The notes under the pieces are model-generated. The model saw only the letters and a program-made list of their open reading frames with translations, did no database searches and was not told the origin of the DNA. The translations under genes and the position numbers were made by a program. A stretch of DNA of 64,000 nucleotides from NCBI GenBank assembly GCA_038065555.1, contig JBBTQS010000001.1, positions 192,741-256,740 of the forward strand, given 5' to 3'. This stretch comes from Patescibacteria group bacterium (GTDB taxonomy: Bacteria > Patescibacteriota > Patescibacteriia > Magasanikbacterales > JBBTQS01). Shown here piece by piece: positions 37,392-41,794 of the stretch (positions are counted from its first letter, which is position 1; every line of letters begins with the position of its first letter).

Positions 37392-37703
37392 TCACATGAA
37401 GAGGTGCACGATCCACCCGAAGAAAAGTGTGATCAGCGGCTTCAGAACAGCCTCCAAGACCATCTTCAGAATGCGCGCGCTGTTGCTCATCTCCTCTTTC
37501 TTGCAGCGGTGCGCATGGTAGGTTAGAAGGTGCACCACCATGGTGAAGCCGATTGCAGGAATGATGTCGAGGGAGGGCACGCCGAAGGTCGGGACAAAGA
37601 ACCACGACCACAGCATGCTCAGAGCGAAGCCATTGAAGATGGAGCCGATGAACGCCAGAATCCAAACGCCGACGTATTCAACGACAACAGAGAACATGGT
37701 CAT
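37392..37703 (-). CDS. Hypothetical small membrane protein (3 TM)
   Basis: 103 aa. Confidence 0.4.
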   Translation of the reverse strand: MTMFSVVVEYVGVWILAFIGSIFNGFALSMLWSWFFVPTFGVPSLDIIPAIGFTMVVHLLTYHAHRCKKEEMSNSARILKMVLEAVLKPLITLFFGWIVHLFM

Positions 37704-38005
37704 TTGCTATCTCCGCAAGATATTGTGTTATCACGATTCTCTCGTGGTGGACTACTGGATACTACTTCCAATAGTCGTCTAACCTAGCACAATTTGGTGT
37801 GAATGTCAAGAGTTGACCACTCAAATTTGCTTGCTCCACATAGTGGACGACATTAAAACTTATTTTATCACTTCAAATATCTACTTTCATGTCCCCAACC
37901 TTCAGAAAGCCAGCGAGTGATTCACAATTTAGAAAGTTTTGCTACGGTTTCCCATACTAAGTTACTATATTTCAGTGTGCACCGATAGCAGTTTTCATAT
38001 CAAAA

Positions 38006-38038
38006 TTAATGCCCTTAATTAAGTTTTAAGGGCATTAA
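38006..38038 (-). terminator. 13 bp perfect hairpin terminator whose upstream arm overlaps the last codons/stop of the island gene
   Basis: TTAATGCCCTTAA-N7-TTAAGGGCATTAA; on minus strand followed by TTTTGATATG; coordinates approximate. Confidence 0.5.
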
Positions 38039-39059
38039 AGATGTCCATAAATTTAACGTTACCGCTTTTTAGTAGTTCCTCCTGTTTCTCCACATCCTCT
38101 ACCTTAAAGAGATTTTCCATTGTAACCGTAACACTGAGATTCAACGGTGGACGATTTAACACCTCGTTTAACTTATTGATGAGGTGGCTACGAACCGCCG
38201 CTTCTACCTTTTTCTGTTTCAAAAAACGAAGTATTTGATAATACTCGGTAATGTACTTATTGGAACGTGAGCGCTGATTCCAACCAAAATCCTTCGTCAG
38301 TCTCGCAATTTCCAAAAACTTCGCCTTTTCAAACTCACTTTGGTCAAACCCAACATTTTCATTCACTTTCATTGCGTCCATCTGGAATTGCGGTATCAAC
38401 TCTTTACTAAGCTGATACAGACGTTTTAGAAGATAAAATGCCTTACGTCGGCCACCGTAGCCCTTCGGCATATCAATTCGGAGAATCTTTTCCGCAGGAA
38501 TTTTTATTATTTGAACGCGTGTATGTGACTCTCTAGCCTCCCACCAATGGACTAGCTGGTAGTAATTCTTGCCTAGGCGGTAAAGGTAGTAAGGTTGAAG
38601 ATGTTCAAACTCAAAACTCTCAATTTCACCCGCGTCATTTTTCTTATAAATTATCTCGTAAAATGCTACTCCGTCAGAAAAAAGAGAATGTGCGGCTAAC
38701 CTGACAAACTCACAGATTGCATCTTCAAGAAAATATGTGTGGTCTCTTTGAGAAATACCACTGGCAATCATTCGCTTTTTTGGAGTTGAAACCGCTGGCT
38801 CAATACGTGCTGGATACTTTTCTCTTTCACCGCGATAAATCATAAAAGGCATAATGCCTGTATACATATCCTCTACAAACATATGTGAATCCCCGTGATC
38901 GGGATATACTTTCCTGCGATACCGTCCTGTTATCCGAGCGGACAGTTGGTTACTGTCGCGTGGGCGTAAATACCACGGTTGCACCCAATGATTCAGAAAA
39001 AGCGGGTCTTTCAAAAAAGACCCGAGGAACTCTTTTCCTTTCTTAATATAGTTATTCAT
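38019..39059 (-). CDS. Island gene B: hypothetical soluble protein (about 346 aa from first ATG), no detectable family
   Basis: First ATG at 39059 (MNNYIKKGKEF) with AGGAAA SD; the ORF-track upstream extension begins with a TTG. Overlaps gene A stop by 8 nt (ATGAATAA). AT-rich codon usage distinct from flanking genes. Confidence 0.55.
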   Translation of the reverse strand: MNNYIKKGKEFLGSFLKDPLFLNHWVQPWYLRPRDSNQLSARITGRYRRKVYPDHGDSHMFVEDMYTGIMPFMIYRGEREKYPARIEPAVSTPKKRMIASGISQRDHTYFLEDAICEFVRLAAHSLFSDGVAFYEIIYKKNDAGEIESFEFEHLQPYYLYRLGKNYYQLVHWWEARESHTRVQIIKIPAEKILRIDMPKGYGGRRKAFYLLKRLYQLSKELIPQFQMDAMKVNENVGFDQSEFEKAKFLEIARLTKDFGWNQRSRSNKYITEYYQILRFLKQKKVEAAVRSHLINKLNEVLNRPPLNLSVTVTMENLFKVEDVEKQEELLKSGNVKFMDIFNALKT

Positions 39060-41568
39060 TGTCTTGTATTTCCTGATTAGGATTCTGTTGCTCCTCTTGG
39101 ATTGAGATCTTGAAATTATGTCTGTCTGGGAGCTCAATTCCTGCAGCAGATGGAAGGTTAGACAGGTAAGTAGCGAAGAAAATGTCCCGTGCGGAAGCCA
39201 TCAATCTCAAACCACCCAACCTTTCAAGTACCCTTACGATTGGGCTTGTATGGGTTGGCTGTCTACGACCATTTACAGTGTCGTAGCTCCTGTCATCAGG
39301 GAATACTGGTATACCTTGCTCGCGTAGTTCGTGTTCAAAGTTGATTTGCCAATTAGTTCGCAGTGTCGCTTGAGGCATTATGGTTAGCAGGCTATCTCGG
39401 TAAGCACTTACCCCCGCAATAAATTCTATGACTTTCTTGGCGTCAACAGCACCAAAATACTTGTTCCATAAATCTTCAAAAACACTCCAAATCTCTGGCT
39501 TCTGATAGAGCTCTGCATATAGCTTTGCGTATCCGCTGATTTCAAAAAGATTTTCAAGGGGTTCGCTTGCAAACACTATTTTGCTATCAAGCTGACTCCA
39601 ATCTTTTACTTTTTCACGTAGTCTTTCGTAAGCGGTAAGAGATGCATCAAATACGGCTGGCAAGATTTTCTTGAGTCTTTCAGGGTCTTTTTCTTCGCAA
39701 GCCTCATAGCAGGCTTCAACTCCTTCGGAAAGAGCCTGTCCGAAATAGTCTGGCAAACCATCACCTGTTGCAAGAGATTTGAGTTGAGGGAGCAATTGAA
39801 TCATCCTGTCGGTCACTTCCTTTTCGCGGTCTAGAGCTGTTTGCTTCTCCTTCTCAAAATCAAAGTCTGTCCAAGGCAAGTCTCCCAACAAGCGACGAGA
39901 GTTGGTGCATTCAACGTGTTTATTCATCTCAAAAACAAGTCTGCGGCACTTGGCAGAAAACTCCTTCCATTTCTGGATAAGGTGAACAGCCAAAGGCAAT
40001 TGTTGTGAGGCAAGTAAGGCATCAAGGGCTGACTGAAAATGTTCGGTATGCAACGACTTAATAAAATTGAAATAGCTATGCAATGAGAAGACATATTGCT
40101 GGAAGCAAAACGTATCTATATACCAATCTTCGGTTACGAGTTCTCCTTCAATGATTTTTTCATTCTCCAAGTCATTTTGAAGAGACTCCAAACGTGGGAG
40201 CATTGCTCCTGGCAACCCCGTGAGATAAATATGTTTTTTACCTGACAGCCACTTTATATCCGCTATGCGTTTTGCTATCGTTTCGCAAGAGTTTGCAGCA
40301 AGGTATTTTGTTAAACCTAGCAATGCTGCGATAGCGAGTCTGCTGTGCGCGTCCACAAAAGCAAGTTGTTCTTTGATTACCGGTTGCTGAACATTCGTTG
40401 CTTGTATTGCAAATAAGGAGTCCCTGATAGATTTTGTTTTTTTGAAAAGAAGCTCTGCACTTTTAACATCAAGATCTTGCGCGTACACATCTGCAATCTC
40501 AACGAATATATCTAAGGCGCGTGCACTGGAAATAATCCTTGTGCCTTCAGAAAAAGATTTAAATACCTCTCCCGCAATGCCCAAGACTTCATCCTCGTAC
40601 CAGGTGTAATTCTTTACATTTTTTGGCTGCAATGTTGTTCCAGTACTTAGCGCGATTGCAATTTCTGAAGAATTGGCAAGACCCCAATCTTGATACTCGT
40701 TTTTAGTTTCAAACCAGTAACTGTTTGTTGGGGTTTTGCTTTTAAAGCCTGCGTACGAGACAAGAATTCCACAGATATAGCCTATCGTTGTAACCAGTTG
40801 GTCGTCAGAGATTTTCATCTCGTCCTTCCCAAATCGCAGGAGGTTTTTGATTAAAGAAAATTTTGATGCGACCAGCCCTCTGTGATGATTTTGTATGGCT
40901 GGATTAGCCCACTGAAACCCTGGAGGTGCGATGCTTTTCATTGAAAAAAGGATGTCTCGCGTAATCCACGTTAGAGCGGACTGCGGCTCCAAGGAGTAAA
41001 AAACGTTCGTCCCTACCTGCCAAAATCTGATGACGATGTACGCAACCAATAGCGAGAGGAAGGCTAGACCTGCTGGATGAATTGTTTGGTCAAAGGATTT
41101 AAAAACGATGTAAAAGACACTCACTATACCTGTAATAGCTATTGTTCTTACGTACTGTCGTCCGCGTGGCTCTTTCAAGAAAAACTGCTTCACATTTTGA
41201 GGTGCACGCAAGAGATAACTGCTAGCAATACCAGATATTGCAGTGAAATACAGACCGAGGAAAACACCAGAGATACTGGCAACAACAGAAAGAAAAGTAT
41301 CAACAGCTTCTTTCTGATAGCGGAGATTTAAAGGGTAGTAAGCACTAAGCAGCTCTAAAATGAAAATTATAAATACGGAGTATGTTACTGCCCCGACAAA
41401 TGATTTTAGCGTCGGAAAGAGAATGTCTTTATCGATTTTGAATTGGTTTTTTGTGTAGCTACCACGATACATGCCTTTCCAAAAATAAAAGACTGGCTTA
41501 TCAGTAAGCCACTTTTTTGTAAGCCAGAAACCTTTCTTTCTGTATAGTTTGTTTCTAAAAGAAGTCAT
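39052..41568 (-). CDS. Island gene A: large membrane protein, 4-5 N-terminal TM helices followed by about 600-aa predicted alpha-helical soluble region; no detectable family
   Basis: 838 aa; TM helices at about 55-78, 95-120, 140-160, 170-190, 255-272; no nucleotide-binding or nuclease motifs seen; AT-rich composition. Confidence 0.6.
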   Translation of the reverse strand: MTSFRNKLYRKKGFWLTKKWLTDKPVFYFWKGMYRGSYTKNQFKIDKDILFPTLKSFVGAVTYSVFIIFILELLSAYYPLNLRYQKEAVDTFLSVVASISGVFLGLYFTAISGIASSYLLRAPQNVKQFFLKEPRGRQYVRTIAITGIVSVFYIVFKSFDQTIHPAGLAFLSLLVAYIVIRFWQVGTNVFYSLEPQSALTWITRDILFSMKSIAPPGFQWANPAIQNHHRGLVASKFSLIKNLLRFGKDEMKISDDQLVTTIGYICGILVSYAGFKSKTPTNSYWFETKNEYQDWGLANSSEIAIALSTGTTLQPKNVKNYTWYEDEVLGIAGEVFKSFSEGTRIISSARALDIFVEIADVYAQDLDVKSAELLFKKTKSIRDSLFAIQATNVQQPVIKEQLAFVDAHSRLAIAALLGLTKYLAANSCETIAKRIADIKWLSGKKHIYLTGLPGAMLPRLESLQNDLENEKIIEGELVTEDWYIDTFCFQQYVFSLHSYFNFIKSLHTEHFQSALDALLASQQLPLAVHLIQKWKEFSAKCRRLVFEMNKHVECTNSRRLLGDLPWTDFDFEKEKQTALDREKEVTDRMIQLLPQLKSLATGDGLPDYFGQALSEGVEACYEACEEKDPERLKKILPAVFDASLTAYERLREKVKDWSQLDSKIVFASEPLENLFEISGYAKLYAELYQKPEIWSVFEDLWNKYFGAVDAKKVIEFIAGVSAYRDSLLTIMPQATLRTNWQINFEHELREQGIPVFPDDRSYDTVNGRRQPTHTSPIVRVLERLGGLRLMASARDIFFATYLSNLPSAAGIELPDRHNFKISIQEEQQNPNQEIQDNE

Positions 41569-41630
41569 TGCTTATTTTGGTATTTCTTCAAAAAGGCATG
41601 GTTTCGTCCAAACCTCTGAAAAAGGCTCTC

Positions 41631-41658
41631 CTAAAAGACAAAAAGGCACCTTCGTGCC
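41631..41658 (-). terminator. Rho-independent terminator immediately after tRNA-Asn
   Basis: Minus strand GGCAC-GAAG-GTGCC followed by TTTTTGTCTTTT; coordinates approximate. Confidence 0.6.
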
Positions 41659-41672
41659 TTCTCGTCCTACTG

Positions 41673-41746
41673 GGCTCCGAGGGCGGGGCTCGAACCCGCG
41701 ACCAATTGGTTAACAGCCAACTGCTCTACCACTGAGCTACCTCGGA
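41673..41746 (-). tRNA. tRNA-Asn (anticodon GTT)
   Basis: Minus strand TCCGAGG-TA-GCTC-AGTGGTA-GAGC-A-GTTGG-CTGTTAA-CCAAT-TGGTC-GCGGG-TTCGAGC-CCCGC-CCTCGGA-G; cloverleaf with 7 bp acceptor, G73 discriminator; only CC of CCA encoded; coordinates approximate. Confidence 0.8.
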
Positions 41747-41794
41747 ATTCTGGGATCCGGCACTAGTGTACCGAATCCCGTGTGCTATTGTCAA

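Follow-up and report, generated by a model that had tools for sequence, protein, structure and literature searches.

The DNA considered here, hereafter the window, is a 64-kb stretch of a Patescibacteria group bacterium contig (JBBTQS010000001.1), and the feature of interest within it is a pair of genes, A and B, that lie beside a tRNA-Asn gene. The tRNA gene (anticodon GTT; 41671..41747, minus strand) is detected by ARAGORN and scores 73.4 bits with the Rfam tRNA model. It forms the upstream boundary of a segment (37704..41635) that consists of genes A and B and a 315-nt AT-rich tail, and whose GC content is 0.37-0.44, compared with 0.47-0.57 in the flanks. Immediately 3' of the tRNA (~41636..41660, minus strand), the sequence reads as a hairpin, AAGGCAC-GAA-GGTGCCTT, followed by a T-run, which is probably the native tRNA terminator. 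Gene A (39052..41568, minus strand) starts 68 nt past this terminator and encodes 838 amino acids; gene B (38019..39059, minus strand) encodes 346 amino acids, counted from its first ATG. The two genes share the sequence ATGAATAA (39052..39059, minus strand), in which the start codon of B lies within the final codons of A; the junction is ...GAC AAT GAA TAA, and the ATG of B is inside it, 8 nt within the end of A. This arrangement implies translational coupling. A terminator scan places the intrinsic terminator of the operon at 37999..38038 (minus strand), where a 13-bp perfect hairpin (38006-38038) spans the stop codon of B and is followed by TTTTG. The remaining tail, from B to the first host-like gene (37704..38018, minus strand), is non-coding and AT-rich (GC 0.38), and neither an RNA family nor a repeat was found in it. 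A first-pass annotation, made from the sequence alone, had described this layout of a tRNA-Asn gene with its terminator, two overlapping co-oriented genes of these lengths, a start codon 8 nt inside the preceding gene and a 3' end embedded in a hairpin, and all of these elements are borne out.

The low GC content that had been estimated by eye is also evident in windowed calculations. Nowhere in the window is GC content lower than in the A-B span (0.416, versus 0.523 +/- 0.016 outside; z = -6.6), and the lowest value anywhere outside the span is 0.490. The same span is the largest tetranucleotide outlier, with an L1 distance of 0.49 versus 0.17 +/- 0.02 and a maximum outside of 0.26. GC at third codon positions (GC3) is 0.41 in A and B versus 0.56-0.59 in rpoD, dnaG and other neighbouring genes. 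A related locus, L004, repeats the contrast (0.35 versus 0.46-0.50). Because the GC content of the pair stays at 0.33-0.38 whatever the host, the pair is conspicuous in the window and in L004, as expected if it came from low-GC donors. The segment is compositionally foreign, and its horizontal acquisition is supported by this composition together with the many unrelated contexts in which the pair occurs elsewhere, rather than by presence/absence polymorphism at the site in the window.

We considered a tRNA-integrated genomic island and rejected it: the tRNA 3' end is not repeated in the rest of the window (allowing up to 3 mismatches), as the first-pass annotation had also found for the distal boundary, the window contains no recombinase, and adjacency to a tRNA is not kept in relatives. 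Adjacency to a tRNA, which the first-pass annotation had listed among its hallmarks of a mobile cassette, is not a trait of the A-B family.

Genes A and B behave as one unit. Among 33 fetched loci, A is directly upstream of B in 32 according to tblastn, and the remaining locus ends at a contig edge. After dereplication to 24 loci, clustering of all open reading frames (ORFs) yields only A and B as proteins common to every locus, and no third conserved gene. Of 21 related loci examined besides the window, 12 have the same 8-nt ATGAATAA overlap, and 1-nt overlaps of the form TGATG or TAGTG are seen in some distant clades. In addition, a JGI protein from an 86.6-kb contig outside the window (P0333) is an A-B fusion of 1145 amino acids, with an A-like part at residues 2-797 (hhalign E = 8.5e-97) and a B-like part at residues 860-1142 (E = 7e-35). 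This protein could be a true fusion or the product of a frameshift in the assembly. The invariant adjacency, the conserved overlap of start and stop codons and the one natural fusion are the reasons for which we infer that A and B form a physical complex, a prediction that is well supported by such sequence arguments.

No comparable conservation extends beyond the two genes: the regions downstream of B have no Rfam match and nothing in common except within one lineage of elements. In that lineage, three elements that carry serine recombinases have in common a conserved non-coding sequence immediately 3' of B, CTGTTGGTAACT..TACACAA..CGAT.TAAGCTAA (L001:13560-13700, L003:8330-8470 and L025:11048-11190), possibly an att site or promoter.

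Homologues of A fall into 85 clusters, nearly all of 833-846 amino acids and all named "hypothetical". Protein A has no significant match in Pfam, PADLOC, NCBIfam or PHROGs, and distant members of the A and B families are likewise without a sequence-family or PADLOC match. Comparison of A with PDB sequence profiles retrieves nothing better than designed helical proteins, all at E>0.1, and comparison with viral structures (BFVD) retrieves nothing at E<=1e-3. The AlphaFold2 model of A is all-helical, with a mean confidence (pLDDT) of 84.8 and a predicted template-modelling score (pTM) of 0.79. On the basis of this model and of hydropathy, we predict with confidence that A consists of four N-terminal transmembrane (TM) helices and a cytoplasmic alpha-solenoid of ~650 amino acids with no enzyme fold. 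The first-pass annotation had described four to five TM helices followed by a helical region that lacks enzyme motifs; the helical region and four of the helices stand, and the fifth helix does not. Hydropathy places the helices at residues 52-80, 88-118, 138-158 and 165-187, so the TM region (amino acids 52-187) corresponds to 41008..41415 on the minus strand. Counts of positive charges (13 K/R in the 53 N-terminal residues, and a loop between TM2 and TM3 that is also positive), combined with the even number of helices, lead to the prediction that both the N-terminus and the solenoid are cytoplasmic (N-in, C-in). The cytoplasmic part is acidic, with a median isoelectric point (pI) of 5.7. A motif in TM2, GVFLGLYFTAIS, is nearly invariant over 39 sequences whose identity is as low as 18%, and its invariant columns are G101, L104, L106, Y107, F108 and A110. 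A 6.4-Mb genome contig carries an A-like ORF (L034:8607-10004) that is truncated at the N-terminus, lacks the TM region and matches only residues 351-806 of the homologue in L035. The B-like gene beside it is intact, and the truncated ORF may be a copy in decay.

Protein B is soluble and basic (pI 9.4), and the core that is conserved across its family comprises approximately residues 56-346. The median pI of the family is 9.4 in the close clade and 8.5 in the distant clade. Homologues of ~346 amino acids form 108 clusters with 50-82% identity, again all named "hypothetical". An exhaustive profile search extends the family to 1069 cluster representatives (at 50% identity) with E<=1e-3, of which 785 have E<=1e-10. 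Among them is a broad clade whose members have ~320-330 amino acids and are unambiguously homologous to B (hhalign E = 3.5e-66).

The AlphaFold2 model of B is confident (pLDDT 87) and has the fold of a tailed-phage portal subunit, with the wing, stem, clip and crown architecture of such proteins. The first-pass annotation had recognised no family in either protein, and the searches of Pfam, NCBIfam, PHROGs and PADLOC are indeed empty, but the predicted portal fold of B changes the mechanistic picture relative to that annotation. By sequence, B does not belong to a portal family in Pfam, PHROGs or PDB sequence profiles, none of which gives a significant match to protein B, and its profile finds nothing in the single HK97 sequence when compared by hhalign. 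Only one of 40 members of the B family matches the PHROG "portal protein" (phrog_12), and this match is marginal (E = 3.7e-4). When the B family is aligned locally with 13 HK97-type portals by hhalign, the match runs collinearly through 265 columns (P = 0.0025, probability 12%). The 13 portals are diverse GenBank sequences; the portals matched in IMG/VR are all at least 96% identical to HK97 and therefore unsuitable for this comparison. Sequence support for homology between B and portals is thus marginal, and we regard a common ancestry as likely rather than proven. Conservation in B is highest in a loop, FGWNQRSRS (G259/W260/R263), that precedes a long helix (residues 272-301) and, judging from the order of secondary-structure elements rather than from a structural alignment, would be placed where portals have their tunnel loop.

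The pair is widespread and unevenly distributed. Homologues of A and B come mostly from metagenome-assembled genomes of Patescibacteria, and species-representative genomes contain the pair in many classes of this phylum and in Omnitrophota. Further occurrences are in bins assigned to Gammaproteobacteria, Flavobacteriaceae and Simkania, in a genome of 6.4 Mb, on other contigs of large genomes, and on plasmids of cultured Paenibacillus lautus (pAZOPL1; WP_119851504/WP_119851503), Paenibacillus sp. Cedars and Burkholderia glumae (WP_209954640/WP_209954642). The Paenibacillus plasmids are typed as non-mobilizable. Several near-identical or closely related loci with GC ~0.33 (L014, L018-L020 and L023) are binned as Flavobacteriaceae, Gammaproteobacteria or Simkania, which would mean either misassigned bins or very recent transfer. 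Neither 50,697 phage records nor a pattern scan of IMG/VR yielded the pair.

Genes of restriction-modification (RM), helicase-nuclease, abortive-infection (Abi) or toxin-antitoxin systems adjoin the pair in 10 of the 24 dereplicated loci, a descriptive count without a background rate. These neighbours are often co-oriented with the pair and at most 30 nt away. They are diverse: type I RM genes (L008, and L005 with ThsB-TIR and YgjP-like genes), a methylase with ResIII in a type III-like RM arrangement (L010), SNF2 with a ResIII/TnsA-like nuclease (L012), an EcoRI methylase with GmrSD-HNH (L013), DUF1156/DUF499/GmrSD (L035), and DUF4011-AAA_11/12-MTES_1575 (L031, and L004 with additional NERD, MNT/HEPN-type and SocA-Panacea genes). 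L039 has VapC with IS66/IS21 beside the pair, and L034 combines a 1722-aa DEAD/MZB helicase with SNF2, AbiEi, a ParB-methylase, an integrase and IS66. A PADLOC scan of 102 neighbour proteins matched type II and III restriction endonucleases and methyltransferases (REase/MTase), DrmD, Hhe, AbiEi/Eii, BrxH, MzaA and mad genes. In 8 of the 24 loci a large serine recombinase is encoded within 7-10 kb of the pair, and in 4 a ParB-methylase is near it. In two loci (L005:3747-4238 and L006:2444-2935), a gene for a ThsB-type TIR protein resides inside a type I RM operon, in the gap between hsdM and hsdS, directly upstream of A and B.

Genes for head morphogenesis are missing from these neighbourhoods. 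Terminase, protease or capsid genes adjoin the pair in none of the 24 loci, so B is not part of a head-morphogenesis cluster, whereas all 11 annotated control portals adjoin a terminase or a protease/capsid gene, and 10 of these 11 have a terminase directly upstream. Given this absence and the absence from phage collections, we conclude that B is not a virion gene. Some carriers of A and B may nonetheless be phage-derived or satellite-like, as is suggested by a 154-aa ORF in L003 (9079-9543, minus strand) that lies by a ParB-N6_N4 methylase and matches PHROG small-terminase families (E = 3e-8).

Ordinary genes surround the pair in L007, L011, L020, L026 and the window. The upstream neighbours in the window are host genes for DnaG, RpoD and a 436-aa membrane protein, and the downstream neighbours encode a small TM protein, OmdA, DUF1428, Gmad2/Germane and Band_7 proteins. 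Directly downstream of the segment (37392-37703, minus strand) is a hydrophobic ORF of 103 amino acids that belongs to no family and has a GC3 of 0.79, far above the 0.56-0.59 of the neighbours. It is annotated as a gene in one contig of the same strain (L042), and not in another (L041).

We favour the explanation that A and B are a self-contained two-gene module of the mobile accessory (conflict or defence) gene pool, built around an exapted portal, and assign this reading a probability of roughly 45%. The pair is accordingly a good candidate for a type of anti-phage system that has not been described. The first-pass annotation had proposed a mobile, defence-like cassette; the foreign composition, the coupled gene pair and the restriction, defence and mobile-element neighbourhoods seen elsewhere agree with this proposal, and gene neighbourhood suggests a role in conflict with phages or mobile elements. 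A speculative mechanism can be outlined. B might assemble into a portal-like ring that is held by the solenoid of A at the inner face of the membrane. Such a ring could mimic the portal vertex of a phage, and so trap the packaging motor of terminase and DNA or seed dead-end procapsids. The phage would be stopped by sequestration, or by abortive infection if the TM bundle of A permeabilises the membrane. The specific proposal that a viral portal was exapted as an immune part, in which the membrane-tethered ring is a decoy dock for the packaging motor or a false nucleus for head assembly, is possible but doubtful. The portal-terminase interface is, to our knowledge, universal in tailed phages, and the same cassette could therefore work in, and spread from, Patescibacteria to Bacillota and Proteobacteria.

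Several observations weigh against the favoured explanation. A defence role is suggested only by gene neighbourhood, where the association is a descriptive count, and the window itself has no defence genes, integrase or direct repeats adjoining the pair. The presence/absence polymorphism that the first-pass annotation had suggested looking for was not seen: contigs of the same strain (from Hainich groundwater) all carry the pair, and no relative with an empty site was found among them or in a metagenome scan with the 436-aa neighbour protein. Neither protein has a recognisable effector (such as a nuclease, NADase or protease), and pore formation by A is conjecture. The basic pI of B is untypical for portals, that of HK97 gp3 being 7.7. 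Finally, contexts with serine recombinases, ParB-methylases or the small-terminase-like ORF fit the maintenance or transfer of an element equally well.

These last contexts lead to an alternative in which the pair serves an integrative element or a plasmid as a DNA conduit or maintenance device, with the membrane-held ring functioning as a channel for double-stranded DNA during transfer, uptake or segregation. Portals are channels for double-stranded DNA, B is basic and A would provide a membrane anchor, and the serine recombinases in 8 of 24 loci, the ParB-methylases in 4 and the plasmids of Paenibacillus and Burkholderia are in keeping with such a function. However, the conserved unit comprises A and B only and lacks an ATPase or motor, a relaxase and a coupling protein; the pair stands alone in the window and ends RM operons elsewhere, and the Paenibacillus plasmids are typed as non-mobilizable. 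We regard this explanation as improbable. If DNA transfer were nevertheless the function, a portal docked at the membrane would itself be a novel type of DNA channel. A slightly less remote alternative, though also unlikely, is that the resemblance to portals has no functional meaning, being an ancient or convergent fold or an artefact of the model, and that A and B form an accessory membrane complex for envelope stress, regulation of transport or attachment of an episymbiont to its host. The marginal sequence support for homology, the lack of an effector domain and the loci with ordinary neighbours, including the window, are compatible with this possibility, but the patchy distribution across phyla, the foreign composition and the recurrence of the pair immediately behind restriction systems of four different kinds are not readily explained by it.

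The least probable explanation is that the pair is a leftover or satellite head-assembly system, in which B is the real portal of a cryptic prophage or capsid-hijacking satellite and A is an accessory morphogenesis factor. In phage T4, assembly of the portal begins at the membrane with a membrane chaperone, and this precedent, the portal fold of B and the small-terminase-like ORF and ParB-methylase in L003 are consistent with such an origin. Yet, unlike true portals, the pair has no capsid, protease, large terminase or tail genes nearby in any of the 24 loci. Moreover, both ORFs are intact and conserved across phyla at 20% to 80% identity, the pair is absent from phage collections, and A has no viral structural relative. 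We also regard as rather improbable that A and B correspond to a system that has been reported but is unnamed or unindexed, one candidate being "Dallas" (ddg genes). Dallas is a multi-gene defence system obtained from Patescibacteria DNA by functional metagenomics, and its phenotype resembles abortive infection and depends on the multiplicity of infection (PMC12366544). DdgA occurs almost only in Patescibacteria and lacks informative homology, and T4 escapers carry the substitution T287N on the portal-facing side of TerL together with a baseplate-wedge deletion (PMC12366544). A trigger centred on terminase is what a mimic of the portal would predict. On the other hand, the authors report no structural homology (PMC12366544), although they would probably have noticed a portal fold; the inserts in that study average 2 kb (PMC12366544) versus 3.55 kb for A and B; and the A-B family has homologues outside Patescibacteria.

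If the favoured explanation, a defence module built around a portal, is correct, then the host wields a mimic of a core part of the virion instead of a receptor for such a part, and the target is the portal-terminase step, which phages could hardly change. It would also add one more system to Patescibacteria, in which very few defence systems have been identified (PMC12366544). The family is large (~1,000 clusters at 50% identity) and is present on plasmids of cultivable Paenibacillus and Burkholderia, and these hypotheses are therefore directly testable.

No account of a portal-like protein that belongs to a cellular defence system or membrane complex emerged from full-text literature searches, and no catalogued defence system includes a portal-fold protein in a two-gene module that is cellular rather than part of a virion. 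The closest relatives of B in fold are tailed-phage portals of the HK97, gene transfer agent (GTA), lambda and SPP1 type, for example HK97 gp3, Rcc01684 of the R. capsulatus GTA and the portal of phage Chi (8vhx). B differs from these proteins in that it belongs to no portal family, has no head genes as neighbours, is absent from phage collections, has a basic pI, and always accompanies a large membrane protein, to which it is fused in one case. In general layout, the pair resembles Kiwa, which also has two genes, encodes a multi-TM protein (KwaA) and a soluble partner (KwaB, DUF4868), and resides in defence islands. However, KwaA is a small TM protein, while A has 838 amino acids with a 650-aa solenoid and B has a portal fold. 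PADLOC and Pfam profiles for KwaA and KwaB match neither A nor B at E<=1, distant members included, and the folds differ, so Kiwa is rejected. Zorya similarly combines a membrane-embedded component (ZorA/ZorB, MotAB-like) with one or more cytoplasmic partners in defence islands, and was rejected on profiles and folds; the ZorA/ZorB (MotA/MotB-like) profiles are unmatched. The first-pass annotation had likewise judged that neither system fits, and its suggestion to search sets of defence profiles gave the same answer, in that PADLOC models match neither protein. Avs (STAND) proteins, which sense the portal and terminase of phages, are also among the closest systems, an example being Avs4 bound to portal (8dgf). 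Dallas shares with A and B a patescibacterial origin, a multi-gene organisation and a lack of annotation at the sequence level, and differs in the length of its inserts. With Dallas compared by description only, the architecture of A and B matches nothing catalogued.

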